DNA of 45,017 bases from Planctomycetota bacterium (lineage in GTDB: Bacteria > Planctomycetota > Planctomycetia > Pirellulales > Lacipirellulaceae), in the NCBI GenBank assembly GCA_039190745.1, contig JBCCXZ010000027.1, positions 1 to 45,017 on the forward strand. Reading direction: 5' to 3'. The translations under genes and the position numbers were made by a program. Each line of letters opens with the position of its first letter. Position 1 is the first letter of the stretch. The notes beneath the pieces were generated by a model, which made no database searches, was not told where the DNA came from, and was given only the letters and a program-made list of their open reading frames with translations. This document shows positions 1,262 through 44,857 of this stretch, in pieces.

Positions 1262-1433
1262 GACAGGATAACGGGATCGGCAGGATCTACAGGATAAGGA
1301 AGAGAAGCAAGAACACTAATCCGCGCTAATCAACACTAATCAGATGCTTCATTAGCTAAGATTAGCGTCGATTAGTGTTCCCTTGATTTCCTTCTCTTCA
1401 TCCTGTCCATCTTGCCGATCCTGTTATCCTGTC
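1262..1433. repeat. Nested palindromic intergenic element, copy 1 (CAGGAT outer arms + CTAAT core)
   Basis: Left arm GACAGGATAACGGGATCGGCAGGAT is an imperfect inverted match to right arm ATCTTGCCGATCCTGTTATCCTGTC. The core at 1311-1380 has 3x CTAAT then 3x ATTAG at 10-bp spacing, bounded by GAACAC...GTGTTC. Confidence 0.9.
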
Positions 1434-2785
1434 ATTGTCCCTGAAACGGCGGCGATTGACTCTTCGATCACGTCGAGCGCTTCGTCGAGCTGGGCGTCGG
1501 TGATCACCAGCGGGGGTAGCAGGCGGATGCAGTTGCTGTAGAGGCCGGCGCGGATCAGCAGCAGGCCCTTCGAGACGCAGGCTTTGATGATCTCGAGCGT
1601 TTGGTCGGGCGCGGGCTTCTTGGTGTGGCGGTCTTCGACGAACTCCGCCAACAGCATGGCACCCACTCCGCGGACGTCGCCCACTAGCGGGAAGCGTTCC
1701 TTCCAAGCGTCCAGGCGAGCCATCGTCCGCTCGCCGACCTCGTCGGCGCGGGCGAGCATCGCGGGGTCGCTGAGTGTCTTGAGCGCCTCGATGGCGGCCG
1801 CGCAGGCCACGGGGTTGCCGCCGTAGGTGCCGCCCACCCCGCCCTTGTGAGCGGTGTCCATGATCTCGGCCTTGCCGGTGACCGCTGAGATGGGCATGCC
1901 CGCGCCGAGCGACTTGGCGCTCACAATCAGGTCGGGCTCCACGCCGGAGTGCTCGATCGAGAACAGCTTGCCGGTGCGGCCCATGCCGGCCTGCACCTCG
2001 TCGGCGATCAACACGATGCCGTGTTGGTCGCAAAGCTCGCGGAGGTGTTGCAGATAGGCGTGCGGCAGCGGCACGAAGCCGGCCTCGCCCTGCACGGGCT
2101 CGACGATCACCGCGGCGAGCGCCGACGGGTCGACGTGCGCCACCATGGCGTCGTCGAGCCGGTCGCACATCCACTCGACGTACGTCTGGTCGTCGAGCCC
2201 CTCGGGCTTGCGGTAGAGGTTGGGCGCCGGCACGCGGTACACCTCGGGGGCGAACGGCCCGAAGTTCTTCTTGAACAGCGCGTACTTGCTGGTGAGCGTC
2301 ATCGCCAGCATCGTGCGGCCGTGGTAAGCGCCCTCGAGCGCGAGCACGCCCGAGCGGCCCGTGGAGGCGCGGGCCATCTTCACGGCGTTCTCGACCGCCT
2401 CGGCGCCGCTGTTGGAGAGGATCGTCTTCTTGGGGAAGTCGCCCGGCGTGAGCCGGTTGAGCATCTCGGCCAGCTCGACGTAGGGCTCGTACGTGGCGAC
2501 CAGGGCGCACACGTGCAGCATGTCGTCGGCCTGGGCCTTCATGGCGTCGACAACGTTCTCGGGCGTGTGGCCGACGTTGAGCACGCCGATGCCGCCGGCC
2601 ATGTCGATCAGCGTGTTGCCGTCGACGTCGGTTACGAGCGCACCGTGAGCGCGTGCGACGGCGATCTCTGTGGAGTAGGCCAGCCCGACCGGTGTGGCCG
2701 CCTGGCGGCGGGCGAGCATCGCGCGGCTCTTGGGGCCGGGGAGTTCGGTGAGGAGCCGGATGGCGGGCGTGGTTTCGACGGACAT
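1424..2785 (-). CDS. gabT: 4-aminobutyrate--2-oxoglutarate transaminase (class III PLP)
   Basis: Start reassigned to MSVETTPAIRL. Motifs DMAGGIGVLNVGH, NSGAEAVENAVKMAR, YHGRT, EPVQGEAGF, DEVQAGMGRTG, AKSLGAGMP (PLP Lys), GGTYGGNP and IRLLPPL. Confidence 0.88.
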   Translation of the reverse strand: MSVETTPAIRLLTELPGPKSRAMLARRQAATPVGLAYSTEIAVARAHGALVTDVDGNTLIDMAGGIGVLNVGHTPENVVDAMKAQADDMLHVCALVATYEPYVELAEMLNRLTPGDFPKKTILSNSGAEAVENAVKMARASTGRSGVLALEGAYHGRTMLAMTLTSKYALFKKNFGPFAPEVYRVPAPNLYRKPEGLDDQTYVEWMCDRLDDAMVAHVDPSALAAVIVEPVQGEAGFVPLPHAYLQHLRELCDQHGIVLIADEVQAGMGRTGKLFSIEHSGVEPDLIVSAKSLGAGMPISAVTGKAEIMDTAHKGGVGGTYGGNPVACAAAIEALKTLSDPAMLARADEVGERTMARLDAWKERFPLVGDVRGVGAMLLAEFVEDRHTKKPAPDQTLEIIKACVSKGLLLIRAGLYSNCIRLLPPLVITDAQLDEALDVIEESIAAVSGTMTG

Positions 2786-2814
2786 GGCTGTGTTTGTTCG
2801 AAAGTGTTTTGGGT

Positions 2815-4092
2815 CTACTTGGCGGCCGCAGCGACGGCATCGGCGAAGAGGTCGGCGGCGTGGTCGATCTGCTCGGCGGTCACGATCAACGGCGGGATGA
2901 AGCGCACCACGTTGCCGTCGGTGCCGCAGGTGAGCAGCAGCAGACCCGCTTCGGCGCAGTGCTTCGAGACGGCCCCGGCGATTTTTTTGCCCTCGGCCCC
3001 GGCGGTGAACTCGCAGCCGACCATCAGCCCCGGGCCGCGTATCTCGCGGAGGCAGTCGTGGCGATCGGCGACTTCCTTGAGGCGGGCGGTGAGCTGCTCG
3101 CCCCGCTCGCGGGCGTTGTCGATCATGCCCTCGTCCTGGATCGCGCGGATCGTGGCGACGGCCGCGGCCTGGGCGATCGCGGAGCCGCCGCCGTAGGTGC
3201 CGCCGTGCGTGCCGGGGGGCCAGCGGTGCATCATCTCCCGTGGGGCTGCGATGACCGACATCGGTAGCCCCGAGGCGATGCCCTTGGCCAGCGTGAGGAT
3301 GTCGGGCCGGGCGCCGCTGGGCGAATGGGCCCACCACCGGCCGGTGCGGCCGAAACCGGATTGGATCTCGTCGACGATCAGCAGGATCCCGTGCCGGTCG
3401 CACACTTCGCGGAGCCCGGCGATGAACCGCATCGGCGCCTGAACGTATCCGCCCTCGCCGAGGACGGGCTCGAGCAGCATCGCGGCGGTCTCACTGGGGG
3501 CGGTCTGCGAGGCGAGCACGTGCTCCAGTTCGCGGAGGCAGAAGTCGACCGTCTGCTCTTCGTCCCAGCCGTAGCGGAGCGTGTACGGGAACGGCGAGAA
3601 GAAGACGCCGCCGGGCAGCGGCTGGTAGCCGGCGCGGTAGACGGTCTTGCTGCTGGTGAGCGCCATCGTCATCGCGCTGCGGCCGTGGAAGCCGCCCTGG
3701 AAGGCGATGATGTTCGGCTTGCCGGTGACGACGCGGGCGAGCTTCACAGCGCCCTCGACCGCTTCGGCCCCGCTGTTGGAGAAGAAGTAGCCGTCCAGCC
3801 CCTCGGGCATGATCGGCGTGAGCGTCTCGGCCAGCTCGACGGCCGTCTCGGGCACGACGCAGTTCATCTGGCCGAACAGTAGTTTCTCGGCCTGCTCGCG
3901 GACGGCGGCGACGACGGCCGGGTGGCAGTGGCCGGTGTTGGTGACGCCGATGCCGCTGGTGAAGTCGAGGTACTGCTTCCCGCTGGCGGCGTGGAGGCAG
4001 GCTCCTTCGCCGCGGACGATGGTGTCGTCGACCACGCGGGCCCAGGCGGTGGAGAAGGCTTCGAGTGAGGCTGTTGGGCTGGCTTGCAGCAT
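2815..4092 (-). CDS. Class III PLP aminotransferase (GABA/putrescine aminotransferase-like)
   Basis: Start reassigned to MLQASPTAS. Motifs YLDFTSGIGVTNTGHCHP, NSGAEAVEGAVKLAR, DEIQSGFGRTG, LAKGIASG and HGGTYGG. Confidence 0.88.
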   Translation of the reverse strand: MLQASPTASLEAFSTAWARVVDDTIVRGEGACLHAASGKQYLDFTSGIGVTNTGHCHPAVVAAVREQAEKLLFGQMNCVVPETAVELAETLTPIMPEGLDGYFFSNSGAEAVEGAVKLARVVTGKPNIIAFQGGFHGRSAMTMALTSSKTVYRAGYQPLPGGVFFSPFPYTLRYGWDEEQTVDFCLRELEHVLASQTAPSETAAMLLEPVLGEGGYVQAPMRFIAGLREVCDRHGILLIVDEIQSGFGRTGRWWAHSPSGARPDILTLAKGIASGLPMSVIAAPREMMHRWPPGTHGGTYGGGSAIAQAAAVATIRAIQDEGMIDNARERGEQLTARLKEVADRHDCLREIRGPGLMVGCEFTAGAEGKKIAGAVSKHCAEAGLLLLTCGTDGNVVRFIPPLIVTAEQIDHAADLFADAVAAAAK

Positions 4093-4139
4093 GGTTGGAT
4101 GGGTTGTTGAGAGGAGCGGGTTGTTGAGAGGAGTGGTAC

Positions 4140-4805
4140 TTAAGCGGGCCAGGCCACGTCGTTTTCGGACGGTAGCACCAGCAGCGCACCGTATCCGTCG
4201 CACACGGGGTCGTTGACGTAACCGGAGACGAGTCCGCGGAGCTTGAATCCCACTCGGCGTTGCGCGGAGACGGTCGGATCGTCGCGGTCGCCGGCAACGA
4301 GCTGGTCGTAGTACTCGCGGGCGGAGAGCTGGTCTTTCAACGGGCCGAAGCCGCTGAGCATGCCGACGGTCACCTGCCCGGCGAGGCCGAGGCGTTGGGC
4401 CGATTCCTGCCGGGCGGCGTACAGCGCGCGGGCGACTCCGCGGCCGCGATATTCGGGGTGCGTGCCGACGTCGACGCCGTACATCCACTCGCCCTCGGGA
4501 TCGTGCGAAGTGAGCCACCCACCCTCGATCACCTCGGCGAACGTGTGGTCGGCTCCGAGGAAATCATTCGGCAGCCGCAGCGTGGAGGTCATGCCGACGA
4601 CGCGGTCGCCGTCGAGCGCCACGAACTGGCCTTCGGGGAACAGTTCGATGTGTTTGTGGTAATGCTCGGCGCGGAACAGCTCGGCGGGGTCGAGCGTGGG
4701 GAACACCGCCTTCTGCAGCGCTTCGAGCTGCTCGGCGTGCTCGGCGGCCGTGGAGGCGACCGACAACCCGGAGGGCAACGCGCGGCGGAAGGCGGCGGTC
4801 GTCAC
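4140..4805 (-). CDS. GNAT family N-acetyltransferase
   Basis: Acetyl-CoA binding motif VGTHPEYRGRGVARALY and FPEGQFVA motif. Its start overlaps the nitrilase stop. Confidence 0.85.
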   Translation of the reverse strand: MTTAAFRRALPSGLSVASTAAEHAEQLEALQKAVFPTLDPAELFRAEHYHKHIELFPEGQFVALDGDRVVGMTSTLRLPNDFLGADHTFAEVIEGGWLTSHDPEGEWMYGVDVGTHPEYRGRGVARALYAARQESAQRLGLAGQVTVGMLSGFGPLKDQLSAREYYDQLVAGDRDDPTVSAQRRVGFKLRGLVSGYVNDPVCDGYGALLVLPSENDVAWPA

Positions 4806-5689
4806 GGGGCGCCCCCGCTGGGTTCAACGAGCTGCTTCAGCAGCGGGCCGTAGGTGTCCACTCGGCGGTCGCGGAGGAAGTGCAGCAGGTTGCGCACGTC
4901 GCGGATCTCGGCCAGGTTCAGGTCGGCGGTGACGATCGCCGGGTCGGCACCGCCCTCGGCGAGCACGTCGCCCAGCGGACCGCTGAGGAAGCTCTGGCCG
5001 TAGAACGTCATGTCGGCCTCGACGCCGACGCGGTTCACCGCGGCGACGAACACGCCGTTGGCGATGCCGTGGGCGCGGATGCCGGTGCGCCACGCCTCGG
5101 CGGTGCTGAGTTCGGGTCGGTCGGGCTCGGAGCCGATCGCCGAGGGGTAGAACAGGATCTGCGCGCCCATGAGCGCCATGATCCGCGCCACCTCGGGGAA
5201 CCACTCGTCCCAGCAAATGGCGACGCCGATCGTGCCGAAGCGGGTGGGGAACACCTTGTACCCGAGGTCACCCGGGGTGAAGTAGAACTTCTCCAAGTAC
5301 TGCGGCCCGTCGGGGATGTGCGTCTTGCGGTACTTGTCGACCGTGCTGCCGTCGGCGTCGAACACCACCACGCTGTTGAAGTAGACGCCCGGCTGTGCCT
5401 CTTCGAAGACGGGTAGAACGAGCACCACGCCCAGCTCGCCGGCGAGGCGGGCGAACCGCTCGGTCGTGGGCGACGGGATCGGCTCGGCCAGATCGTACCC
5501 GGCGACATCGACCGTCTGGGGGAAGTACTGCGCGTCGAACAGCTCTTGGAGGCAGACGATGTGCGCGCCGCCCGCGGCGGCCTCGCGGACGCGGGCTTCG
5601 GCGGCGTCTCGGTTGGCGTCGCGGTCGGGGGTGCAGGCCATCTGCACCAGCGCGGTGCGGACGGTTTGGTTCTCGGGGTCGGCCGGCAC
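4802..5689 (-). CDS. Carbon-nitrogen hydrolase, N-carbamoylputrescine amidase (AguB)-like
   Basis: Nitrilase triad in QELF (E), YRKTHIP (K) and ICWDEWFPE (C). YLEKFYFTPGDLG and YPSAIGSEP are typical of the AguB/CPA branch. Confidence 0.85.
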   Translation of the reverse strand: MPADPENQTVRTALVQMACTPDRDANRDAAEARVREAAAGGAHIVCLQELFDAQYFPQTVDVAGYDLAEPIPSPTTERFARLAGELGVVLVLPVFEEAQPGVYFNSVVVFDADGSTVDKYRKTHIPDGPQYLEKFYFTPGDLGYKVFPTRFGTIGVAICWDEWFPEVARIMALMGAQILFYPSAIGSEPDRPELSTAEAWRTGIRAHGIANGVFVAAVNRVGVEADMTFYGQSFLSGPLGDVLAEGGADPAIVTADLNLAEIRDVRNLLHFLRDRRVDTYGPLLKQLVEPSGGAP

Positions 5690-5901
5690 GGCTGGGGCTC
5701 CGCGGGGGCTTGGCTCATCAACCCACCGAGTGTAGCCGGGCCCGCGTCGGGTGGGCAGCGGGCGTGCGCAGTTGCGCGACAGATGTTCGCAGGATGTAAG
5801 CCTCTTGGGGATGCGTGTTTGGCCCAGGCGTAGGCCTCGTTTACCCTGTGGGCCTAGAGCCGCGACCAGTTGGCTCTTTCGGACACGCAGGAGAACGCAC
5901 C

Positions 5902-8479: not shown

Positions 8480-8578
8480 CGGGAGGATTCCTTTCGCGGC
8501 GTTACTGACAAGGCGTTCAGTATCCTCGTGCGGGCCGCCTGAGACAAGCCGAGGGGCCGGCGGCCTGCCAGGCCGCGA

Positions 8579-16609: not shown

Positions 16610-17797
16610 ATGCCGAGTATTGAGATCGTTCCCGTTGCCGGAGCTCGGCAAAAGAAGCAGTTCCTGAATCTGCCCTGGCAGATCTACGAGGGCGATCCCA
16701 GTTGGGTGCCGCCGCTTCGGATGACCCAGAGAGAGCTGGTGAACTTCAAGCGGCACGCGTTCTACGAGGACGCCGACTCGCAGGCCTTCCTGGCGCTGAA
16801 GGACGGCCGGCCCTGCGGCCGGGTGCTGGCCATCGAGAACCACGCTCATAACCGGTGGTACGAAGAGAAACGGGGCTTCCTCGGCTTCTTCGAGAGCGAG
16901 GACGACGGCGAAGTCGCCGGGCGGCTTTTCGATGCGGCCCGCGATTGGTTCCGGTCACGCGGCATCGAGGCGATCCGCGGGCCGATGAACCCCTCGCTCA
17001 ACTACGAGCTGGGTCTGTTGATCGAGGGGTTCGACGACCCGCCCTGGTTCATGATGACCTACAACAAGCCGTACTACGAACGGCTGTTCGACGAGTACGG
17101 CTTCCGCAAGGCCCAGGATATGTACGCCTTCTGGGGCCATGTGGACATGCTCGAAGAGGTCACAAGCCGGCTGGGCGCTTTCGGCAAGAGCGTCGTCGAG
17201 CGGTTCAATGTCCAGTGCCGGCCGCTGGACGTGAAGCGTTTCGACGAAGAGGTCAACCTGTTCTTGGAAATCTACAACCGGGCGCTGGTCTCGACGTGGG
17301 GCTTCGTCCCCATGTCCGAGAGCGAAGTGAAGAAGCAGGGCGAGGGCCTCCGCCGGCTCATCATCCCCGAGCTCACCATCATCGCGGAAGTCGACAACAA
17401 ACCGGTCGGCACGGTGTTCGGGCTGATGAACTACAACCCGCGGATCAAGAAAATCGACGGCCGGCTGTTCCCGTTTGGGTTCCTCAAACTGCTGAGCAAC
17501 CGCAAGACGATGCACCAGATGCGGCTGATCAGCACGAACGTGCTGCCGGAATTCCAGAGTTGGGGGATCGGCGTCGCGCTCGTGGCCGCGCTCCTGCCCA
17601 ATGCGCTGGCGTGGGGGGTCCAGGAGGCGGAATTCTCCTGGGTCCTGGAGAGCAACGACCTCTCGTACAAGACGCTCAAGAAGGGCGGCGCCAAGGTCAC
17701 CAAGAAATACCGCATCTACGACTACGGGCCGCCCGACACGACGGCCAACGCCCGCTTCATGCCGCCGCAGCCCGGTGCGGACGGCGAGGCCGGCTAG
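16610..17797 (+). CDS. YghO-type GNAT-fold acyltransferase; candidate bacterial ceramide synthase
   Basis: FLNLPWQIYEGDPSWVPPL, GFLGFFES, IRGPMNPSLNYELGLLIEGF, MMTYNKPYY, WGFVPM and EFSWVLESN follow the pattern of this ~390-aa family. Confidence 0.78.
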   Translation: MPSIEIVPVAGARQKKQFLNLPWQIYEGDPSWVPPLRMTQRELVNFKRHAFYEDADSQAFLALKDGRPCGRVLAIENHAHNRWYEEKRGFLGFFESEDDGEVAGRLFDAARDWFRSRGIEAIRGPMNPSLNYELGLLIEGFDDPPWFMMTYNKPYYERLFDEYGFRKAQDMYAFWGHVDMLEEVTSRLGAFGKSVVERFNVQCRPLDVKRFDEEVNLFLEIYNRALVSTWGFVPMSESEVKKQGEGLRRLIIPELTIIAEVDNKPVGTVFGLMNYNPRIKKIDGRLFPFGFLKLLSNRKTMHQMRLISTNVLPEFQSWGIGVALVAALLPNALAWGVQEAEFSWVLESNDLSYKTLKKGGAKVTKKYRIYDYGPPDTTANARFMPPQPGADGEAG

Positions 17798-17885
17798 AGC
17801 GCACAACACCGAAGCGTAGCGGCTTCTCCGTTGGAATAGTCGGCGAACACATCGCCGCCGACGTTATACGTATGTGCGACTCGCA

Positions 17886-18755
17886 CTAGCGACGCAGCAC
17901 GCCGTACTTGAAGATGCACCAGAAGGCGTTCAGCGCGTCCCGCACGCCGATCTTCTTGCCCTCGTCGTAGCCCCGGCATTGGTAGCTGATCGGGAGCTCG
18001 CGGATCAGAGTTCCACGGCGGGCGATCTTGGCGGTGATCTCCGGCTCGAACCCGAACCGGTTCTGCTCGATGTCCAGCGACTGGATCAGCTCGCGGCGGA
18101 AGACCTTGTAGCAGGTTTCCATGTCTGTGAGCTTCTGGCCGGTGGTGAGGTTCGACGCGGCGGTGAGCACCCGGTTGCCGAAGCGGTGCAGCCAGGACGG
18201 GTCCTGCTCGGCGTTCTCGAGGAACCGCGAGCCGTACACGACATCGGTCTGGTCGTCGAACGCGGCGAGCAGCTTCGGCACGTCGGCGGGGTCGTACTCC
18301 AGGTCGGCGTCTTGCACCATCACCAAGTCGCTGCTCGCGTGGGCGAACCCCGTCCGCAGCGCGGCGCCCTTGCCGCGGTTGTAGCCGTGCATCTCGACGC
18401 GGATGCCGGGCTCCTTGGCGAGCTCCAAGAGCAGCGTCCGTGTGCCGTCCATGCTGTAGTCGTCGACGATGATGATCTCGTCTGCGACGCCCGCGGCCTG
18501 CACGCGCCGGACGATGTCGACAATCGTCCGCCGCTCGTTGTAGACGGGGATCACTACCGAGAGCGACAGCTTCTGTGCAATCGACGCAACCGGGTCGGCC
18601 GCCGCGGCGTCGGCGACGGCTAGGGTTTGCTCGGCGTTGTCGACGGCCGTCTGCATCCGTTTGAGGTACTCCGAGTCGGTCACCGGCTGCAGCGGCACGG
18701 AGGGCGCCACCGGGGCCGCTGCGGAAGTCGTCGTGTCGGTCGTCATGGCGTTCAC
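17886..18755 (-). CDS. Glycosyltransferase family 2 (DPM1-like polyprenol-phosphate sugar synthase)
   Basis: SVVIPVYNE, IVDDYSMDGT, NRGKGAAL, VQDADLEYDP, VYGSRF, TDMETCYK and FGFEPEIT. Confidence 0.9.
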   Translation of the reverse strand: MNAMTTDTTTSAAAPVAPSVPLQPVTDSEYLKRMQTAVDNAEQTLAVADAAAADPVASIAQKLSLSVVIPVYNERRTIVDIVRRVQAAGVADEIIIVDDYSMDGTRTLLLELAKEPGIRVEMHGYNRGKGAALRTGFAHASSDLVMVQDADLEYDPADVPKLLAAFDDQTDVVYGSRFLENAEQDPSWLHRFGNRVLTAASNLTTGQKLTDMETCYKVFRRELIQSLDIEQNRFGFEPEITAKIARRGTLIRELPISYQCRGYDEGKKIGVRDALNAFWCIFKYGVLRR

Positions 18756-20848: not shown

Positions 20849-21370
20849 ATGAGCACCGACCGCAAACAGGGTTTGCGTGTGCATATCCGTTGGATGATCC
20901 GCCGCGACATGCCCGAGGTCCTCGGCATCGAGTCCGAGAGCTTCGAGTTCCCCTGGTTCGAGGAGGACTTCATCCGCTGCCTGCGGCAACGCAACTGCAT
21001 CGGCATGGTCGCCGAGAGCGGCGAGCGGGTCGTGGGTTTTATGATCTACGAACTGCACCGCACCCGGCTGCACATCCTGAACTTCGCGGTCGCGGCCGAC
21101 GCCCGCCGCGACGGCGTGGGCAGCCAGATGGTCGACAAGCTCATCGGCAAGCTCTCCAGCGAGCGCCGGACGCGCATCTCGCTGGAAGTCCGCGAGACCA
21201 ACCTGCCGGCGCAGCTGTTCTTCAAAGAGGTCGGCTTCCGCGCGACCACCGTGCTGCGGGCTTATTACGAAGACTCGCCCGAAGACGCGTACATTATGCA
21301 GTTCCGCTACGACGCAAAGCCGGACGAGGCCGCGACCTCGACCAACCGCCTGGGGCGACTGGCCGGCTAG
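20849..21370 (+). CDS. rimI: Ribosomal protein S18 N-acetyltransferase RimI-like
   Basis: IRWMIRRDMPEVLGIE, HILNFAV, LEVRETNLPAQLFF and YYEDSPEDAYIM. GAGGGAG upstream of ATG 20849. Confidence 0.85.
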   Translation: MSTDRKQGLRVHIRWMIRRDMPEVLGIESESFEFPWFEEDFIRCLRQRNCIGMVAESGERVVGFMIYELHRTRLHILNFAVAADARRDGVGSQMVDKLIGKLSSERRTRISLEVRETNLPAQLFFKEVGFRATTVLRAYYEDSPEDAYIMQFRYDAKPDEAATSTNRLGRLAG

Positions 21371-21382
21371 CGTTCTTGGGGG

Positions 21383-21865
21383 TCACAGGCTGACGATGGT
21401 CGCTTCGAGCGCTTCGAGGTCGACTACCGCGATCGAATGCGGGTTCGCTCGGTAGACGGCACCCGGGTTGAGCACCACCGTTTCGCCCGCGTGCTCGATG
21501 AGCGCCTCGTGCGTGTGGCCGTAGCATACGAGGTCCCAGGCGCCGCTGGAGATCGTTTCCCGGAATCGAGCTGCGTCGTGGCTGTGCAAGAGCGCCACGC
21601 GGCGTCCGGCGATCTCCAGGCCGCCAAACTCGCCGTGGCAGGTTTGGCCCGCCGCTTCGATCGACGCCCGCAGCCCGGCGTGGTCGTAGTCGCAGTTGCC
21701 GAAGACGAAGTCGGTTGGCCAGGGTGCGAACTGCTCGACGACTTCGGCTGTGCCGATGTCGCCGCAGTGCAGCACGCGCTCAACCTCTAAAGCCTTGAGC
21801 ATCGTCACCGCTGGACTGGTAAGCTCCAAGTGCCCGTGGGTGTCGCTGACGACGCCAATCCGCAT
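21383..21865 (-). CDS. YfcE/MJ0936 family metallophosphoesterase
   Basis: SDTHG, HCGD, GNCD, GHTH and NPGA motifs. Confidence 0.9.
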   Translation of the reverse strand: MRIGVVSDTHGHLELTSPAVTMLKALEVERVLHCGDIGTAEVVEQFAPWPTDFVFGNCDYDHAGLRASIEAAGQTCHGEFGGLEIAGRRVALLHSHDAARFRETISSGAWDLVCYGHTHEALIEHAGETVVLNPGAVYRANPHSIAVVDLEALEATIVSL

Positions 21866-25805: not shown

Positions 25806-25825
25806 ACGTGCACGCCGGGTTTGTT

Positions 25826-25998
25826 GAACCACGAAAAGCACGAAAGAAACGAAAAAGAAGAGATTGGTCAGAAAGGCAGAGGGGAGTAGGAACACTAATC
25901 TGCACTAATCGTCGCTAATCCGGATTAGTGCAGATTAGCGTCGATCAGTGTTCCCACACTTCCTCCTTCCTTTCGTTTTTTAGTTCCTTTCGTGGTTC
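25826..25998. repeat. Nested palindromic intergenic element, copy 2 (CGAAA outer arms + CTAAT core)
   Basis: Arms GAACCACGAAAAGCACGAAAGAAACGAAA ... TTTCGT...TTTCGTGGTTC. Core at 25890-25953: GAACACTAAT CTGCACTAAT CGTCGCTAAT CCGG ATTAGTGCAG ATTAGCGTCG ATCAGTGTTC. Confidence 0.92.
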
Positions 25999-26020
25999 CA
26001 AACAGAAGCAAGAGAGTCCG

Positions 26021-26389
26021 ATGACCCCCCTGCTCGCGAACACCCCCGCCGTGTGGATGTTTACCGCGGGCTGTGCGCTCTTGAGCTACCTGCTGCTGCG
26101 TCGGTCGTTCCGCTACTTCGGCCGCCGCGGCAACCGACGGTCAAGTGCTTACCTGGAACGCGTCGCCCGGCCCAAGAGCGAGTGGGACGGCATGCAACGC
26201 GACGCCGCCGCGCACATCGAACGCCAGAAAGTGGAGCTCCACGACATGAGCCGAGACCTCAACGGCGAGCTCAGCTCGCGCATCATCGTGCTGGAGCGGC
26301 TCATCGCCGAGAGCTCCGACCAGATCCGGCGGATGGAGACGCTGCTCGACGAGATGGAGCGTGCCCAGGCGGCGACCGCCGAGCGCTAA
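26021..26389 (+). CDS. Hypothetical protein with N-terminal TM helix and coiled coil
   Basis: MTPLLANTPAVWMFTAGCALLSYLLLRR followed by a helical charged region. Start placed after the palindrome. Confidence 0.7.
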   Translation: MTPLLANTPAVWMFTAGCALLSYLLLRRSFRYFGRRGNRRSSAYLERVARPKSEWDGMQRDAAAHIERQKVELHDMSRDLNGELSSRIIVLERLIAESSDQIRRMETLLDEMERAQAATAER

Positions 26390-27057
26390 CCCTCGACCAA
26401 CTCGAGCGTGATCCAGCAGCTGGGGTCCTCTTCGTACGGCAGGTGCGGGCCGTTGCTGAGCGTTTGCAGGCCGAGCTCGCGGTCGAGCAGCGCGTAGGTG
26501 AAGCCGATGGAACGCTGCTGCTGCGGGTCGTAGCCGCCCAGCGCCTGGGCCGAGACGAATGCGCTGAGTGTGTAGCCTGTCTTCTTCACAGACGACTTGG
26601 CCGTGATCTCCCGCGGCCGGATCGGCCGGGCGTTTTCCCGGGCGCGGTTGATGAGCACCTGGTCGGCGACCGCGTCCTCGGCCGAGCGCCCCCCGCCGCG
26701 GGGCAGGAACGCAAACCGGTGGCAGAACCGCGTCGCCCGGTGCACGTTGTGCGTCGCCCGCGTGTCGACCCACACCTGCAGGCCGTCGCTGTCTTCGAGC
26801 CGCGACTCGCGGCACCAGGGCAGCTGATGCTTGCCCGTGACGGTGGCCTGCCAGGCGATGCCCTCCGGGGCCCACGCCATGCGGACGTCGGCGAAGGTGC
26901 GTTCGCCGTCGAGCTGCCCCAGGTCGGGCAGGCGGTGCTCCTCGCCGAGCTTGACGCCGGCGGCCGACCAGATCGGCTTGTGTGGGCGCACCTCGGTCCG
27001 GAAGCGGAACAGAAACCGCGGCGGGACGAGCGGGCTTTCAGCGGGAGGTGCGGGCAT
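26386..27057 (-). CDS. Hypothetical protein (possible CBM9/DOMON-like beta fold)
   Basis: Compact ORF with FADVRMAW, DGLQVWVDTR, GYTLSAFV and IGFTYALLD. The fold guess is tentative. Confidence 0.7.
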   Translation of the reverse strand: MPAPPAESPLVPPRFLFRFRTEVRPHKPIWSAAGVKLGEEHRLPDLGQLDGERTFADVRMAWAPEGIAWQATVTGKHQLPWCRESRLEDSDGLQVWVDTRATHNVHRATRFCHRFAFLPRGGGRSAEDAVADQVLINRARENARPIRPREITAKSSVKKTGYTLSAFVSAQALGGYDPQQQRSIGFTYALLDRELGLQTLSNGPHLPYEEDPSCWITLELVEG

Positions 27058-27159: not shown

Positions 27160-28335
27160 CTAGAAATCGTTGTCGCCAACGATATCCATCGTCCGCTCCT
27201 GGTCGCCACTTGGGCCGCCGAACACGAGATCAGATTTATTCCGATTGGAAGTCATCAGCTGCCCGTAGATGCGGGGCTCGATGTTCTCAGCCACAAAACG
27301 CACGTTGCCGCCGACAAACGCAACGTTCACGCCGCCTGGGTGGTTGCTCGTCGGGAAGTAGTGAGCAAAGTTCCCGAACTGGAGGTCCACGTCAGAAGGC
27401 TGCTCGTAGGAATCCTGTTCTCGATCGCCGTTGATACGAGACAAGCGGAAAACGTCGGTAGCCGAAGGGTTGACGACCTCGTCTGGCTGCTCCCAGCAGA
27501 TGCCGAAGTGATACTTTTGATCAGTAGTACCACTCGAAGTATAGTCTGCATCATTCGGGTACACCCAGGTGGTCAGGTGTAGGTTTTCCGTCAATAGAAT
27601 CGTGGTCGTCGTTCCATCGCCTTTTGCTTGAATATAGCTGTTGGTCACCACAATCTGAGGATTCCCGTTCGTGTCGAAAATGTCCTCCGGCCCGACTAGG
27701 TTATTGGTAAATTGGGTTGGCACGCGGCTACGGTCAAAGAAGACGCCGTTGGCTGGGTTTTCCTTGACCTGATTCGCGTCATTCGCAATCGCCGACAACG
27801 GTGGTACTGCGACACTGTTGACGGTCTGGTGTGTGCGCTGAATCCAGCCCGCATTGGCGCCGTACGAAAGATTGGGCTGACCCGGGATTGCGGGCGGGTC
27901 GCTCGGGCAAACCAGCACTTCAAGCTCGGGTATGTTCGAGTTGTCGATGTTGCCTCCGGCATCGATTCCCAAGAGCGGTGCAGCACCATTGGCCGAATTG
28001 GGTTGGGACCATATGTCCCACAGAGACTGTTGCTCAACGTAAGGGAACGTAAAGACAACCCAACTCGCACGCACTTGATTCGCCGTGCCCTTAACCCCCA
28101 GGTTGTTGATGTAGCCCGGGAACTCGTTGAGCGTCGACTCACGGTTCGCCAGACCCTTCTGGAGCTGGAGCAGGTTGTTCTTGCAGGTGTTGTTGCGGGC
28201 CGCCTCGCGGGCGTTCTGCACCGCCGGCAGCAGCAGGCCTACGAGGGTGCCGATGATGGCGATCACCACTAGCAGCTCCACGAGCGTAAAGCCGCGCTGG
28301 CGAACAAGCGTTTGCCTCGGTTCTGTTGGCTGCAT
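27160..28335 (-). CDS. DUF1559 family prepilin-like protein
   Basis: [34 protein letters not shown] prepilin N-terminus, CKNNL, LVCPSD and a C-terminal [17 protein letters not shown]. Confidence 0.92.
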
Positions 28336-28590: not shown

Positions 28591-28810
28591 GAAGGAGATA
28601 GGGGAGACTTTGGGGATGAAACGGGGATGGAGCGCAAAGCATTACTTGGGCACCGTTTGAAATGCGGAACTCGGTCTCCGGCAACCTCCGAACCTGCAAA
28701 AAGTGGGGCTAGGCAAGAGCCGTTTCCGAACGGAACCCTCCATCGCAGATTCGTCTCTTGCCGAATCCCCTAGGCTGTCTGCCTCCATCCCCGGCATCCC
28801 CCCATCCCGC
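28591..28810. repeat. Degenerate palindromic intergenic element (GGGGAT outer arms)
   Basis: Left GAAGGAGATAGGGGAGACTTTGGGGATGAAACGGGGATGGAG versus right CTCCATCCCCGGCATCCCCCCATCCC. It resembles the arms of the 44666-44857 element. Confidence 0.6.
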
Positions 28811-28990: not shown

Positions 28991-29488
28991 ATGTCGATGT
29001 TCATCGGAGAAGCGCTCGCCGGCGACGGCAACGAGATCGCCCATATTGACCTGCTGCTCGGCTCGAAAGACGGCCCCGTCGGGACCGCCTTCGCCAACGC
29101 CCTCGCCACGCAGAGCGAAGGCCACAACAACCTGCTCGCGGTCCTCACGCCCAACCTGGCCGTGAAGCCCTCCACCGTGATGATCACCAAAGTGACCATC
29201 CAGGGCATGCGTCAGGCGGTGCAGATGTTCGGCCCGGCCCAGGCCGCGGTCGCCAAGGCGATCGCCGACTCGGTCGCCGACGGCGTGATCGCCAAGGACG
29301 CGGCCGAAGACCTCGTCTGCGTCTGCGGCGTGTTCATCCACCCCGAGGCGGCCGACGACAAGAAGATCTACGACTACAACTACGAGGCCACGAAGATGGC
29401 CGTGAAGAACGCGATGGAAGGCAAGCCGACCGTCGACGAGATGCTCGCCGGCAAGGAAGAAGCCGCCCACCCGTTCCGCGGCTTCTGA
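28991..29488 (+). CDS. fae: Formaldehyde-activating enzyme (5,6,7,8-H4MPT hydro-lyase)
   Basis: IGEALAGDGNEIAHIDLLLG, VKPSTVMITKVTI, QMFGPAQAAVAKA, VFIHP, YNYEATKMA and HPFRGF. Confidence 0.95.
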   Translation: MSMFIGEALAGDGNEIAHIDLLLGSKDGPVGTAFANALATQSEGHNNLLAVLTPNLAVKPSTVMITKVTIQGMRQAVQMFGPAQAAVAKAIADSVADGVIAKDAAEDLVCVCGVFIHPEAADDKKIYDYNYEATKMAVKNAMEGKPTVDEMLAGKEEAAHPFRGF

Positions 29489-29514
29489 TGGCGGGCCCGT
29501 CTGATGGCGAGCCG

Positions 29515-30372
29515 ATGCGAAAAATCCTGCTCTGCCTCGACAGCGACCCGCAGCCGAGCGTGTTCGACGGCGTGGTCGCGGTCGACGCGGGGGCGGACCA
29601 CCTGTTCCGCCACGGCGGAGTTCAGCCGGCGGACGTGCAAGCGCTCGTCCACGGCGCCATGTTCACGCGCGGCGGCGACGACCTGAAGCACACGGCCGTG
29701 TTCGTGGGCGGCTCGGACATCGCCGCCGGCGAGCGTCTGCTCGAGGCGGTGACGAAGAGCTTCTTCGGCCCGGTTCGCGTTTCGGCGATGCTCGACAGCA
29801 ACGGCTCGAACACCACCGCGGCCGCGGCGGTGGTCGCGGCGGGGCGTCACCTCGATCTGGGCTCAAGCACGACCGCGGTCGTGCTGGGCACCGGTGCTGT
29901 TGGGCTGCGCGCTGCGCTGATGCTCGCTGCCGAAGGGGTCCGCGTCCGGCTCGCTTCCCGCACGCAGGAACGCGCGGCCGCGGCGTGCGCGACCCTCGCG
30001 GACAAAGGCCTCGCGGGAGCCGTCGAGCCGTTTTCCTCCTCCGCCGATGCGCTGGCAGCGACACTCGGAGGGGCCCAGGCGCTCATCTCCGCCGGCCCTG
30101 CGGGCGTGACAATGGTGGACGAAGCAACCCGGTCCGCCGCGGGTTCGCTGCGGGTGGCGATCGACCTGAACGCCGTCCCCCCGCTCGGCCTTGCCGGGAT
30201 CGAAGTCACCGACAAGGCCGCCGAACGCAACGGCCAGACCTGCTACGGCGCCCTCGGCGTCGGCGGGCTCAAGATGAAGATCCACAAGGCGGCCCTGCAA
30301 AGCCTCTTCGAGCGCAACGACGCCCTACTCGACGCCGCGGAGATCTACGCCGTGGGCAAGTCGCTTGGGTGA
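29515..30372 (+). CDS. mtdC: NAD(P)-dependent methylene-H4MPT dehydrogenase (MtdA/MtdC type)
   Basis: DSDPQPSVFDGVVAVDAG, VHGAMFTRG, DSNGSNTTAAAAV, DLNAVPPLG and GALGVGGLKMKIH. Directly after fae. The subtype is assigned from the inferred planctomycete lineage. Confidence 0.85.
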   Translation: MRKILLCLDSDPQPSVFDGVVAVDAGADHLFRHGGVQPADVQALVHGAMFTRGGDDLKHTAVFVGGSDIAAGERLLEAVTKSFFGPVRVSAMLDSNGSNTTAAAAVVAAGRHLDLGSSTTAVVLGTGAVGLRAALMLAAEGVRVRLASRTQERAAAACATLADKGLAGAVEPFSSSADALAATLGGAQALISAGPAGVTMVDEATRSAAGSLRVAIDLNAVPPLGLAGIEVTDKAAERNGQTCYGALGVGGLKMKIHKAALQSLFERNDALLDAAEIYAVGKSLG

Positions 30373-30379
30373 TTTGATT

Positions 30380-30544
30380 GAACCACGAAAGAAGCGAAAG
30401 ACACGAAAAAGAAGAAGTGAGAAGGGGCTCAAAGAACACTAATCAACGCTAATCGACACTAATCCGGATTAGCGCTGATTAGCGTCGATTAGTGTTCCTA
30501 TTCCTCCTTTCTTGTTTTCGTCCATTTCGCGTCTTTCGTGGTTC
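30380..30544. repeat. Nested palindromic intergenic element, copy 3 (CGAAA outer arms + CTAAT core)
   Basis: Arms GAACCACGAAAGAAGCGAAAGACACGAAAA ... TTTTCGTCCATTTCGCGTCTTTCGTGGTTC. Core at 30434-30497: GAACACTAAT CAACGCTAAT CGACACTAAT CCGG ATTAGCGCTG ATTAGCGTCG ATTAGTGTTC. Confidence 0.92.
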
Positions 30545-30576
30545 CCACCCCGCCTCAACCCAGTCTTCAGGTAGCA

Positions 30577-33595: not shown

Positions 33596-33603
33596 GGAGA
33601 GGG

Positions 33604-33758
33604 GACCACGAAAGGAACGAAATAGACGAAAGAAAAGACGGTTGCGAAGTCACAAAGAGCTGCCGATCCGCACTAAGCTCGATGTGCGTCTATCGGCACG
33701 AATTAGTGTTCCTGCTCTGCCTTCAGTGTTTTCGCGTCTTTCGTCCTTTTCGTGGTTC
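33604..33758. repeat. Nested palindromic intergenic element, copy 4 (CGAAA outer arms, degenerate core)
   Basis: Arms GACCACGAAAGGAACGAAATAGACGAAAG ... TTTTCGCGTCTTTCGTCCTTTTCGTGGTTC. The interior retains CACTAA and ATTAGTGTTC plus a TGCCGAT...ATCGGCA pair. Confidence 0.85.
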
Positions 33759-33766
33759 TTGATCAA

Positions 33767-35496: not shown

Positions 35497-35572
35497 GGCC
35501 TCCCGTGCCGACCCGAGACGTGCGCAACCGGGGCGGCGATGGTTCCTAATCGGTCAGGGTTCCGACGCGGTG

Positions 35573-36859: not shown

Positions 36860-37060
36860 GGAGGGGTTCCTTGGTAGGAGAGTCGTTTCTTCTGCGTTCC
36901 GCCCCGGGAAGAGGGTGGCGGCCCCCGGAAGCCTGCAGCGTGCCGCTCCGAGTCTACCGATGGCGAGCCCGGGGTTCAATCGGCGGAGGGCCCCGACGGA
37001 GGGCTCGTCGCGGCCAAAGATTGGGGCTTTTGCGGTTTCTCGCGATCAGGCAGATCGCCG

Positions 37061-38506: not shown

Positions 38507-38551
38507 AGGGATCGACTGGGTGAAACGGCCGCGGAGAAGAGCGGCGGGAGT

Positions 38552-41500: not shown

Positions 41501-41809
41501 TTCGCGGCCCTCGCTTTCCCAGGCCGGCAGGCGTACCACCGGCGCCCGGGTGAAGAGCCCCAGGTCGGATTCCAGGGCGTCGCACTCTTTCTCGCGCGCC
41601 GAGACCACCAGCAGCGGGTGCTCTGCCGACCGCAGGAGCGTGGCGACCGCGAGCGCGCACGACGAACCCCAGACACCGCCCACAGCGGCGGAGTGGCCCT
41701 CGCGGAGCCGCTCGACCACCTCGCGGAGCCCCGGCGACGCTTCGAGTTGAGCGGCCAGCGCGAGCAGTTCGTCAGAAACCGTGGCCCCGGCCGCTTGGGC
41801 CGTGCTCAT
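38552..41809 (-). CDS. mfd: Transcription-repair coupling factor
   Basis: UvrB-like GEFARRGGIIDVF, CarD-like GDLVVHLAHGIGRY, DRLLCGDVGFGKTEVA, DEEQRFGV, TATPIPRT, QLRGRVGR and DLELRGAGN. Confidence 0.96.
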   Translation of the reverse strand: MSTAQAAGATVSDELLALAAQLEASPGLREVVERLREGHSAAVGGVWGSSCALAVATLLRSAEHPLLVVSAREKECDALESDLGLFTRAPVVRLPAWESEGRERLARDEVFGGRLRALKRLSGKDPSTEHAVVVASIQSLMQPVPSRDDLAAATRRLAVEQTLDADAFCIWLAEGGFQSTTAVELPGEFARRGGIIDVFAPDVEHPVRLELFGDELESIRVFDVATQRSIESLSVIEVTAMSPGVSHRTHATAYLPEGAWVALVEPQEIDEQGRHYLSRLEDPSACLSVATTVKELTQFTNVTVAGVPSVEAGAVAHARFESVERFSGEVQRVREELEAAAGDDRVYLVADTEAELQRLGELFAGSKLAESGRLRLALGRLDRGFRAADQGTVLISAAELFHRSEVQRPSQRKLGRAIDSFLELRQGDLVVHLAHGIGRYRGLKLIQKEAGAEEHLELEYFGGTRVYVPTSKIDLVQKYVGGRKAKPNLAKIGGAAWAKQKQAAERAVTDLAAEMLELQAARESRPGIAFPADTPWQAEFDAAFPYQETDDQLAAIEGIKEDMTVAKPMDRLLCGDVGFGKTEVAMRAAFKAIDAGYQVAVLVPTTVLAEQHRRTFSERMAEFPFEIASLSRFSTTKQTRETLKKAAEGKVDLVIGTHRLVSPDVEFQNLGLIVIDEEQRFGVQVKERLKALRASVDVLTMTATPIPRTLHLSLLGVRSISNLETAPKDRVAVETRLTRFNEETIRHAVLRELNRDGQVYFVHNRVHDIQKVAHRLQQIVPEASLAIGHGQMNERELEEVMLGFVRHDFDILLATTIVESGLDIPNANTIFIDDSDRYGLADLHQLRGRVGRYKHRAYCYLLIGADRQLTPEAARRLRAIEEFSEMGAGFALAMRDLELRGAGNILGTQQSGHIATVGYELYCALLERAVRELRKLPPKESIDVAIELPAEAYLPDEYIGDRRTKVDLYRRLARVPDEPLLDEFAAELEDRFGSLPGPVVELVQLARLRVWAHGWAVSGIRVEGGYLVLEFHDERRFRGVLERAAGRLRLADASSAYLPLKTIGTDYGAMLAALKPLLRPAAGGS

Positions 41810-41867
41810 AGGTAGTGCCGCGATTCTACGCAGACTTGCCGGACTCACATAGTCCCGGCCAGCCCGT

Positions 41868-42182
41868 TCAAGGCTTCACCGTGAGGAATGCGACATTCTC
41901 TCGCGGGACCCAGTATTCGATGCCCGGCACGGTTTCCAGAACCACCCACTCGGAGTTCATCCGCACGAACCGCCCCTCGAAATCCTTGCCGGATGGGTCT
42001 TTGCAGATCACCCGGCAGTTAGCGCCCGCGGTGGGGGTCATCAGCTCACGGGCCCGCCGTTCGGTCCGCTCGGAATAGGTTTGCCAAGTGGTATAGCCGC
42101 TCCACGCCACCAAGCCGACCAAGGCCACGACTAGCGTGGTCCGCAACCGTGGGCGGAACCAGGAGCGGCGGGGTTCGATCAT
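41868..42182 (-). CDS. Small membrane-anchored hypothetical protein
   Basis: MIEPRRSWFRPRLRTTLVVALVGLVAW (Arg-rich segment plus TM) and a small beta domain. TACAAT lies 6 nt upstream of the ATG. Confidence 0.65.
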   Translation of the reverse strand: MIEPRRSWFRPRLRTTLVVALVGLVAWSGYTTWQTYSERTERRARELMTPTAGANCRVICKDPSGKDFEGRFVRMNSEWVVLETVPGIEYWVPRENVAFLTVKP

Positions 42183-42379
42183 GGCGCGATTGTAGCAGGC
42201 CCGTGCGGCAGCCCCGCAAAACCGCGCAGGCCCGCACCACCGGCGGCCAGGGCCCGGCACAGGCGGGGATCGCCGGCGACGGGTTGTGTGTCTCCAGGCC
42301 GGCGGGCCGATAGCTACGGATGGAGCCTTCCCGCCCCTCTTTCGCGGCGGGCCGAATCTCTAGGAAGGAGGACCGCACG

Positions 42380-42604
42380 ATGTGGCGTGCACTATTTCTA
42401 GCACTGGGCGCTTTCACGTGCCTTTTGGGCGTTCAGGCCCTCGCAATCGAGCGGGCCACTGTCAAGCAATCCGCCCCCGACAACCCCGGCGCCTATACCT
42501 ATAAGGAGGTTACCCTCCCCGATTGGGCGCCCTGGAGCCTGATGTCCGGCGGGGTCGTCGTGGTGCTCTACTCTTTTACGCTCCCCAAGAAAGTTGGCGG
42601 CTAG
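42380..42604 (+). CDS. Small two-TM membrane protein
   Basis: Strong AGGAGG RBS. MWRALFLALGAFTCLLG...PDWAPWSLMSGGVVVVLYSFTLP. Confidence 0.75.
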   Translation: MWRALFLALGAFTCLLGVQALAIERATVKQSAPDNPGAYTYKEVTLPDWAPWSLMSGGVVVVLYSFTLPKKVGG

Positions 42605-42880
42605 CCAGCATTTGTCGGTCGTTGGGTCGCTGGCGCGAACCCGCAACTGCGGCCCCGACTCCATCCCAGCGGAGCCGCCCGGGGGCCCTGCTCCCGTCTG
42701 GTTGTCATGAGGCCGCAAACGGCCTACCATGGAAAGGTTTAGGGCCGACCCGCAGGCCGCCGCAATAAGGCCCCAATGCGTTTTGGCGCCGACCGACGCG
42801 GCGTCGCCCACGCCCTCACTCCTCGCGACCTGCACCCGACGTTTATCGATCCACCCCCGCCGCTCACCGGAACCCAAGCC

Positions 42881-44650
42881 GTGGCAACCGCGATCCCTCC
42901 GAAGACCACCAACGAACTCACCTCCGGCGCCGACATCCTGGTCCAGTCCCTGGTTCGGCTGGGTGTCGACACGATCTTCGCCTACCCAGGCGGCGCGAGC
43001 ATGCCGCTGCACCAGGCGCTCACCCGCGTGAAGGACGAGCTGCGCACGATCCTGCCCCGCCACGAGCAGGGCGGCGGCTTCGCGGCCCAGGGCATCGCCC
43101 GCGCCACCGGCAAGGTCGGCGTCTGCATGGCCACCAGCGGCCCCGGCGCCACCAACCTCGTCACCGCCATCGCCGACGCCAAGCTCGACAGCATCCCGCT
43201 GCTCGCCATCACCGGCCAGGTGCCTACGAGTGCCATCGGCACCGACGCATTCCAAGAGACGCCCATCGTCGAGGTCTGCCGCGGCATCACCAAGCACCAC
43301 TACCTCGTGACCGACGTCAACGACGTCGCACGCGTCGTGAAAGAAGCGCACCTGATCGCCACCACCGGCCGCCCCGGCCCGGTGCTGATCGACGTGCCCA
43401 AAGACGTGCAGCTCGCCCAGTGCGTGCCCGACTTCGACGCCGATCTGAACCTGCCCGGCTACTCGTTCGACAAGCCGCACGCCAAGCCCGAACAAATCAA
43501 GCAGGCCGCTGCCGCGATCAAGCTCGCCAAGCGCCCGGTCATCTACGCCGGCGGCGGCATCATCCTGGCCGAGGCTCACGAAGAGCTCCGCGAGCTGGTC
43601 GAGAAGACCGGCATCCCCATCACCACCACCGTCATGGGCCTGGGCATCTTCCCAGGCTCCCACGAGCTCTCGCTCGACATGCTCGGCATGCACGGCTCGG
43701 TTTACGCCAACTACGCCGTCGACGAGGCCGACCTCCTGATCGCCCTCGGCGTGCGGTTCGACGACCGCGTCACCGGCAAGGTCGACGAATTCTGTAAGCA
43801 CGGCAAGATCATCCACATCGACGTCGACGCCTCGGAGCTGAACAAAAACAAGGAAGCCCACTTCCCCGTCTGCAGCGACGTGAAGTACGCCCTCGAAGAG
43901 CTGAACAAGATCGTCGAGCCCCCCGAGGACATCTCCGACTGGGTCACCCGCTGCAAAAAGTGGAAGCTCAAGCACCCGTTCTCGTTCGACGAGAGCTACC
44001 CCGGGATCACGCAGCAGCTCGCGATCCAGGAGATCTGGAAGCTCACCGCCGACCAGGACCCGGTCGTGGCCGGCGGCGTCGGCCAGCACCAGATGTGGGC
44101 AGCCCAGTTCTTCAAGTTCGAGAAGCCGCGGACCTGGCTCTCCAGCAGCGGCCTCGGCACGATGGGCTTTGGCCTGCCCGCCGCAATGGGCGTCCAGGCC
44201 GCCTTCCCCGACCGGCTGGTGATCGACATCGACGGCGACGGCAGCTTCCTGATGAACATCCAGGAGCTGGCCACCTGCGCCTGCGAGAAGCTCCCCGTGA
44301 AGGTGCTGCTCTTGAATAACCAGCACCTCGGCATGGTCGTGCAGTGGGAGGACCGCTTCATGGCCGGCAACCGGGCCCACACCTACCTCGGCCCCATCGA
44401 CAACCCCGAGGCGGTCGGCCAGGGAGACGGCATCGGCCCCGCGGACCGCTACCCCGACTTTGTCAGCATCGCCAAGGGTTTCGGTTGCGGCGCCGCCTAC
44501 GTGAAAGAGAAGGCCGATCTGATCCCAGCTATCGAAGAGATGCTCGCCTACGACGGGCCGTACGTGCTCGATGTCGAGACGCCGTACCAGGAGCATGTGC
44601 TCCCGATGATCCCCGGTGGCAAGACCGTCAAGGACATCATCATCCAGTAA
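42881..44650 (+). CDS. ilvB: Acetolactate synthase large subunit (biosynthetic)
   Basis: [29 protein letters not shown]-like [21 protein letters not shown], ThDP motif GDGSFLMN...NN and [10 protein letters not shown] start inferred. Confidence 0.95.
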
Positions 44651-44665
44651 GCTCTCTTGAAGACA

Positions 44666-44857
44666 GAGTCGATTGAAGCGAACGAGATAGGGAGATGTTG
44701 GGGACACAGAGGAGGTAAAGAAGAGGATTATAGGATTCCAGGAAAGTCCTAGTCAGCGTCCCCGAATTGCGTAACTGCTGGAATCCTCTCCCCTCTCTCC
44801 TTTTTTTATCCCCCGTCATCTCCTACATCCCCTCGTCTCCTTCTTCAGAATCGACTC
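44666..44857. repeat. Palindromic intergenic element (GGAGAT/GGGGAT outer arms)
   Basis: Terminal inverted pair GAGTCGATT / AATCGACTC and inner inverted pair AGGATTCCAG / CTGGAATCCT. The left arm is purine-rich and the right arm pyrimidine-rich, with GGAGATG/CATCTCC units. Confidence 0.72.

Follow-up and report, generated by a model that had tools for sequence, protein, structure and literature searches.

Six repeat elements in the window

The 45,017-bp contig JBCCXZ010000027.1 of a Planctomycetota bacterium (Lacipirellulaceae; assembly GCA_039190745.1), here called the window, carries six intergenic elements in which short words repeated at a period of 9-10 bp form inverted arms, and which an earlier note had described, from the sequence alone, as a dispersed family of modular nested palindromes. 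The genome to which the window belongs (G000) was compared with that of its congener G001 (88% identity) and with those of more distant relatives. We lean, by a little, towards the reading that the six elements are copies, lacking a gene, of inverted-arm cassettes in which the full form has a small gene of the GxxExxY family between its arms, and that they are likely non-autonomous and spread in trans by the nucleases predicted from such genes.

All six elements are present where the earlier note had placed them and show the composition that it reported, being AT-richer than their surroundings (GC 0.44-0.59 versus 0.67 for the whole window), with 62-73% purines in the left halves and 25-40% in the right halves. 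Folding z values against 100 dinucleotide shuffles each were -16.5, -6.8, -2.6, -10.1, -4.4 and -4.1 for copies 1 to 6, and all copies but copy 3 thus fold much more stably than their shuffled versions. With the 36 window genes called by our own script, the element starts 7-20 bp past a stop codon in five of the six copies, as had been noted, and copy 3 lies between divergent genes. Also in line with the earlier note, no transposase family was detected among these 36 genes, the single below-cut-off match (IstB) being on an ABC ATPase, and an Rfam search of the elements gave no match. The DUF1559, Fae and Mtd genes of the window point to a planctomycete as the host.

Copy 1 consists of a left outer arm of four CAGGAT words at about 9 bp (1258-1298, + strand; profile score 46.3 bits), an inner inverted pair of CTAAT arms with a 10-bp period (1310-1382, with arms at 1310-1343 and 1350-1382; 34.8 and 33.2 bits) and a right outer CAGGAT arm (1397-1436, - strand; 43.2 bits), which overlaps the stop of a convergent aminotransferase gene and is mostly lost in G001. 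In copies 2 and 4 an inverted CTAAT pair (25887-25956, 41.4 and 41.1 bits; 30433-30500, 36.3 and 41.5 bits) is enclosed by CACGAAA arms. The left arm of copy 2 (25824-25857, + strand) scores 28.1 bits and its right arm (25969-26001, - strand) is eroded (12.6 bits); the left arm of copy 4 (30378-30411, + strand; 29.2 bits) begins 7 bp past the mtd stop and its right arm (30514-30546, - strand) scores 28.2 bits. Copy 5 has CACGAAA arms at 33602-33633 (+ strand; 25.8 bits) and 33729-33758 (- strand; 22.0 bits), between which an inverted sequence match marks a decayed CTAAT remnant (33666-33712), best preserved in its right half. Copy 6 is bounded by GGAGAT arms at 44669-44704 (+ strand; 25.7 bits) and 44806-44854 (- strand; 31.1 bits). 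Copy 3 (28591-28810) is a weak, decayed GGAGAT/GGGGAT element that is visible in the sequence and reaches 12 bits with no arm profile, and the orthologous site in G001 shows a clearer GGAGAT pair.

The earlier note had described a GAACACTAAT core shared by elements with different arms. This core is indeed enclosed by CAGGAT arms in copy 1 and by CACGAAA arms in copies 2 and 4, and the remnant in copy 5 is its right half. However, it is not a separate kind of unit, but a fourth periodic arm type, CTAAT, with a period of 10 bp and not of 9 bp, as all 32 CTAAT triplets are spaced 10/10.

Arm words and their GxxExxY genes

Twelve arm profiles were built from arms of G000 and G001, and each gave 0-2 matches on the reversed genome. 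The further copies that the earlier note had expected were counted with these profiles: 279 arms at 158 sites in G000, a figure from a library that misses some heptamer arm types spotted later by eye. The window is arm-rich, with five profile-detected sites in 45 kb versus 158 in 3.9 Mb genome-wide. In 88 of 90 same-type arm pairs the arms face inward. Where CTAAT shares a site with another arm type, as it does at 17 of its 28 sites, it is always innermost, while CAGGAT is usually in the middle and the ACCAC/ACCGC types lie outside. Some arms enclose unrelated small open reading frames (ORFs), as within the CAGGAT or CAGAT arms at C9:47830-48390, C72:15050-15640 and C2:126740-127110 of G000; the first of these ORFs contains a CSAGLSRS motif, which we take to resemble that of dual-specificity phosphatases. 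At about C1:113320 of G000, a GCGGA heptamer arm lies, as judged by eye, within a coding frame resembling mutS and consists of one unit, versus a 21-bp in-frame gain in G001. Pattern searches of viral contigs gave 12 CAGGAT and 23 CTAAT loci, several being simple tandem repeats, and there was no GxxExxY match at these loci among the matches listed.

Six GxxExxY genes were found in G000, all above both curated cut-offs (PF13366, TIGR04256), and all six lie within periodic arms or next to them, each gene having a word of its own, namely CCGCAGAG, a CAGAT type, CGCAAAG, CACGAAA, GGAGAT and CTAAT. The CTAAT hairpin adjoins the gene on contig C17, which carries an internal stop. In 67 GxxExxY proteins the residues E27, D67, E77, K79, Q91 and Y95 are conserved at 90% or more, and the PD-(D/E)XK residues are intact. 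The structure predicted for GxxExxY (predicted local distance difference test score, pLDDT, 94.7) has fold neighbors among restriction-fold, Cas4, lambda-exonuclease and Hjc proteins (best VIA Z 8.4), none of which is singled out. Foldseek with this model returned no match at E 0.001, and a profile of the 67 proteins had 0 matches at E 1 among the sequences of solved structures. Synonymous and non-synonymous codon changes in three G000/G001 ortholog pairs number 27:5, 14:3 and 51:21, and by this measure the enclosed genes, which we refer to as helper genes, are under purifying selection. They occur as one gene per clade at fixed sites. In G004 (C5, locus L031), the 3' end of a GxxExxY gene and its right arm are duplicated in tandem.

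For the relation between word and protein clade, loci were picked by protein similarity alone and CTAAT arms were scored within 300 bp. Relatives of the C17 protein have CTAAT arms in 77 of 80 cases (73 distinct proteins, from metagenome contigs), whereas relatives of the C9 protein, which come from many phyla, have them in 0 of 80 and carry CCGCAGAG or CACGGAG in 57 of 80. CAGAT was found at 16 of 24 relatives of the C3 gene, CACGAAA at three of eight relatives of the C117 gene, and related words at three of ten relatives of the C36 gene. As GxxExxY genes with CAGGAT and GGAGAT arms were found in G003 and G299, a cognate clade can be named for each of the four words seen in the window. On a tree comprising 84 labeled proteins, 14 word changes were needed compared with 43.7 after shuffling, and none of 200 shuffles gave a value as low; 43 of 167 proteins had been dropped from this tree as unlabeled and the C9 relatives reduced to 25 of 65 labeled ones. 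These results suggest that each GxxExxY clade probably recognizes its own word of 7-10 bp, a putative pairing that, with one word per clade, provides a predicted substrate for each enzyme. They also support the earlier proposal of a non-autonomous, REPIN-like family with a trans-acting partner elsewhere, mobility by the nuclease being our own inference.

The elements could also have been moved by the RAYT of this genome or by host replication errors, the GxxExxY genes being passengers that captured arms. G000 does possess a RAYT gene (C95:3-335, locus L409; detected only with NF047646), and for one GTAG-type repetitive extragenic palindrome (REP), 25 of 86 sites have an arm no more than 300 bp away. 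However, this gene, which is cut by the contig end, has a GTAG doublet of its own on its one readable flank and no periodic arms; among the genes that the earlier note had proposed to look for within the same arms, it is the GxxExxY genes that carry them. The arms, in turn, contain neither a GTAG or CGTC tag nor a short perfect stem, and passenger status would not yield 77/80 versus 0/80. We consider this explanation very unlikely, the least probable of those weighed here. At least four REP-like families occur in G000 (140, 70, 36 and 34 matches), and the GTAG doublet of the RAYT also sits inside a CTAAT element at C10:67549.

The earlier note had mentioned a link of such palindromes with four-helix-bundle genes as well as with GxxExxY genes, and both gene types were found in such arms. 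Searches of G000 (95% complete assembly) with TIGR02436, PF05635 and PF01797 gave no match at E 0.001. PF05635 four-helix-bundle genes are present in G001, G004, G007, G008 and G018 (loci L421-L438), most of them with arms of 7-bp period in which the word differs per gene, so that these cassettes have the same gene-inside-periodic-arms design as the GxxExxY cassettes, and they occupy the same junctions.

Arm abundance was also compared with the presence of the cognate gene. CACGAAA arms number 4.1 per Mb in G000 versus 1.2 in G001 and CGCAAAG arms 3.6 versus 1.2, and for both words the cognate gene was found in G000 and not in G001. Heptamer GACAGG arms number 1.0 per Mb in G000 versus 9.6 in G001, and their four-helix-bundle partner gene was found in G001, with none in G000. 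A gene of the CTAAT clade is present in 12 of 71 relatives, all 12 of which have CTAAT arms; at least 10 such arms occur in 9 of the 12 carriers versus 13 of 59 non-carriers (P 0.0008, with kin not independent).

Turnover and conservation at gene ends

The comparison of G000 with G001 covered 2.4 of the 4.9 Mb of G001, and mapping of 158 G000 and 92 G001 sites gave 70 distinct orthologous sites. The arm type is common to both genomes at 36 sites, differs by profile at six, and at 28 an arm was scored in one genome only. Inspection by eye of these 28 showed another repeat type at eight, a decayed common copy at one (copy 3), an empty site at 11, other DNA at five and an ambiguous situation at three. 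About 14 of the 70 sites (six by profile and about eight by eye) therefore hold a different repeat in the two genomes. At C36:13183, for example, a GxxExxY cassette that is common to other genera gives way in G001 to CACGAAG arms that flank CTAAT and hold no gene. The earlier claim that cores and arms nest modularly and recombine is thus borne out by the ordered nesting and by swaps at orthologous sites. All six window sites are occupied in G001, one of them, copy 5, with outer arms of the CACAGAG/CACGGAG type instead of CACGAAA. Copies that are fixed and orthologous, with no empty sites, had been named in the earlier note as a finding that would speak against mobility; the window copies are orthologous in G001, whereas 11 of the 70 sites are empty in one genome, and the copy-4 junction is without periodic arms in G003 and G006, that is, in both fetched relatives of other genera with the same gene order. 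Filled/empty junctions are ragged, and the direction, gain or loss, is unpolarized. No target duplication was visible by eye at the 11 filled/empty pairs, in genomes that differ by 12% and in which old duplications would be eroded.

Such exchanges could also arise if the arms were recombination hot spots of a gene-capture platform, where cuts made by the nuclease, or by hairpin nucleases of the host, are repaired from incoming homologous DNA with an exchange of the cargo genes or other repeats in the interior, new sites being rare. At C72:15034 the outer arms are common to both genomes, and what they enclose is either a CAGGAT cassette that carries a cargo ORF or the remnant of a CTAAT element; different interiors within the same outer arms were also found at C2:126730 and C4:60178. 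In addition to the small unrelated ORFs within arms, this explanation can draw on the C3 gene, which is 74% identical between the congeners versus about 89% in its flanks, and on the fae-mtd junction, which carries different repeats in different genera. However, it leaves unexplained the 158 sites and the way in which arm abundance goes with the cognate gene, most interiors are gene-less, and at C6:32387 and C19:16615 the junction exchanges cargo without arms as well. We therefore judge it improbable. The armed site at C19:16615 is replaced in G001 by an arm-less pair of small genes that resembles, by eye, a toxin-antitoxin module.

Several further differences were observed within the window. 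A 90-bp insert at 17796-17886, AT-richer and bounded on either side by CTA, lies between convergent genes and is absent in G001. The middle of a DUF1559 gene (27357-28003) is largely replaced between G000 and G001 while the gene ends align. Of three junctions that are empty in G000 (21369-21383, 26372-26391 and 31161), two contain a REP doublet of the GTGGCACTGGC type in G001 and one contains a long array of GACAGGA heptamers. The fae-mtd junction (29470-29515) is short in G000 and holds different repeat types in several relatives (loci L471-L482).

With respect to placement, four of the 158 G000 sites are inside called genes and the rest are extragenic. The 145 sites with both neighbors are flanked by co-directional (110), convergent (25) or divergent (10) genes, and divergent gaps are avoided (10/145 versus 430/1663 among gaps of at least 100 bp). 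Of the arm ends that adjoin a 3' gene end, 75 of 86 are within -20 to +21 bp of the stop codon.

In 38 orthologous arm pairs the fixed letters of the words differ at 55 of 826 positions (7%) and the variable letters at 68 of 203, whereas four-fold codon sites differ at 1731 of 6247 and 25-29% would be expected from neutral decay under the same filter. In G000 the variable letters of the two partner arms match in 150 of 385 cases (0.39) versus 0.48 when permuted (P 0.0002, mainly CTAAT), and in G001 they match at chance level (0.415 versus 0.419 permuted). For 63 gene-bearing cassettes of other genomes the partner match is 0.78 versus 0.59 by chance, a difference confounded by lineage differences. 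No G-U excess was detected on the sense strand, the counts of G-U versus A-C being 55 versus 76 in G000 and 28 versus 30 in G001. As there is no arm covariation, no G-U excess and no Rfam match, selection for an RNA hairpin or a structured RNA was rejected, and a function relying on RNA pairing, as a 3'-RNA element of the kind considered in the earlier note might have, is unsupported. Words that are kept while their pairing is not kept form the pattern expected for protein sites on DNA.

This pattern raises the possibility that the arms are host-maintained binding sites, at which GxxExxY, the four-helix-bundle protein or a host protein binds the words at gene ends, be it on DNA or on the transcript, and tunes termination, processing or chromosome structure, the spread of the arms being incidental. 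Conservation of the words in place at about one quarter of the neutral rate, the clustering of arm ends around stop codons with avoidance of divergent gaps, the persistence of arms without a detectable cognate gene and the purifying selection on helper genes are all in favor of it, and regulator sites have been proposed for such pairs in the available text of Aklujkar 2009 (PMC2700814). However, at a given site one word is freely exchanged for another and empty sites are frequent, neighboring genes have no pathway in common, the sense strand lacks a G-U excess, and a position after the stop codon is also expected from selection against harmful insertions. We regard host-maintained sites as unlikely, though as the strongest of the alternatives.

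A proposed nuclease-driven repeat system and its relation to known systems

In the mechanism that we propose, several GxxExxY copies would bind the three or four words of each arm on double-stranded DNA, and the bound nuclease would make cuts at the arms or close by. A copy would next be patched by host repair into a gap close to a stop codon, and such patching might often hit the middle of an older element and replace its interior. Cut-and-repair patching of this kind would produce junctions that are ragged and lack a target duplication, arms nested within arms, copies with no gene in them and the capture of cargo genes. Binding, cutting and insertion by the nuclease, including mobility driven by it, are steps that we infer.

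Several observations weigh against this reading. The six window sites are common to the congener, so that turnover is slow, and the empty sites are unpolarized, with at least one (C19:8689) resembling a deletion scar. Joint inheritance of gene and arms can alone give the match of word and clade. The word conservation at old copies is unlike that of a dead passenger and points to some selection at host level. The PF05635 protein, which is unrelated and without known nuclease activity, has the same design with 7-bp words, and so the nuclease may not be the mover. Within the family, the association of gene and CTAAT arms is non-significant (8/11 versus 12/32, P 0.08). G285, a closed genome that is 97% complete and consists of a single contig, contains 93 CTAAT arms, and not one of the five GxxExxY genes in it is CTAAT-armed; G299 has 141 CTAAT arms and no CTAAT-clade gene was found in it; and the CTAAT cognate gene has an internal stop in three of 12 carriers, G000 included. 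No CAGGAT-armed gene was found in the 95% complete assembly of G000 despite its 23 CAGGAT arms. Finally, there is no sign of recent horizontal spread of helper genes: no recent homing-like transfer between the congeners was seen, four-fold differences being 20/49, 11/55 and 28/43 compared with a genome median of 0.30.

Among known systems, the closest parallel is provided by REPINs and their RAYTs, which in the available text of the respective papers are inverted doublets dispersed between genes with a single-copy, vertically inherited helper flanked by its own repeat (PMC3116915, PMC5581495), with genomes that hold several pairs of helper and repeat (Bertels and Rainey 2011, PMC3116915; Bertels 2017, PMC5581495) and with a location near gene 3' ends and mismatched partners (PMC3733652). 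Similarly, the arms described here are inverted doublets in extragenic space (88/90 inward; 4/158 sites in genes), and the GxxExxY helpers resemble domesticated RAYTs in being single copy per clade, at fixed sites and under purifying selection. However, the helper is a PD-(D/E)XK protein of 125 amino acids and not an HUH Y1 transposase, the arms consist of 3-4 tandem words at 9-10 bp and not of a short GTAG- or CGTC-tagged hairpin, and both the gene and further cargo lie within these arms, whose nesting follows a fixed order. On balance, a REPIN/RAYT-like system that would use a different, predicted enzyme appears to us somewhat better supported than not.

Like the inverted repeats of miniature inverted-repeat transposable elements and insertion sequences, the elements include gene-less derivatives of an arm-flanked gene, and ends with several protein sites each are a feature of Tn7- and Mu-like elements. 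Unlike miniature elements and insertion sequences, the arms enclose no DDE transposase, only GxxExxY genes or small unrelated ORFs, and both ends and interior vary in length; a target duplication is not visible either, as far as erosion between genomes 12% apart would leave one to be seen. The PF05635 cassettes differ from the GxxExxY system in the unrelated protein and the 7-bp words.

Comparable pairs have been published for Geobacter metallireducens, where sites of Classes 1-3, described as putative binding sites of global regulators, are opposite-strand pairs of 3-5 tandem words at variable distance, and where a different repeat occupies the same proBA junction in a sister species (Aklujkar 2009, PMC2700814). 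In the available text of that paper these sites are interpreted as sites of IHF/HU-type regulators, with no link to GxxExxY, mobility or nesting (PMC2700814). The class 2 consensus given there, TCTCCGTS[Y], reads to us as the reverse complement of the CACGGAG arm, a match by consensus only, and the window's own words differ. The CACGGAG type has 20 arms in G000 and is also the type at the copy-5 site in G001. For PDDEXK_3 (PF13366), the available part of one survey lists the function as 'Unknown' and mentions neither arms nor repeats (PMC3424549), and in the available part of one preprint GxxExxY appears merely as a domain label (10.1101/2021.01.26.428298). No paper linking the arms to GxxExxY was found in a library that covers few subscription journals. 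Repeats and enzymes together likely make up a system not described before, with copies that spread, nest and are swapped at the ends of genes.

The GxxExxY family (PF13366) occurs widely and has no assigned function, and paired periodic repeats have been published without a partner. If the nuclease moves the elements, domesticated repeat systems in the style of REPINs would have had an independent origin with another, second class of enzyme; otherwise, the conserved words would mark a layer of protein binding at some 150 gene ends in each genome. More tentatively, and with somewhat less than even confidence, the system may represent a kind of mobile DNA that is new as a class, in which a code of short periodic words, one for each clade, is read by minimal PD-(D/E)XK nucleases that move or swap the cassettes bounded by these words at gene ends, with no transposase involved, the clades invading each other's elements in a fixed order and carrying cargo. 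If this is true, GxxExxY proteins would be a family of natural 125-amino-acid, sequence-specific DNA-moving enzymes with matched target words.

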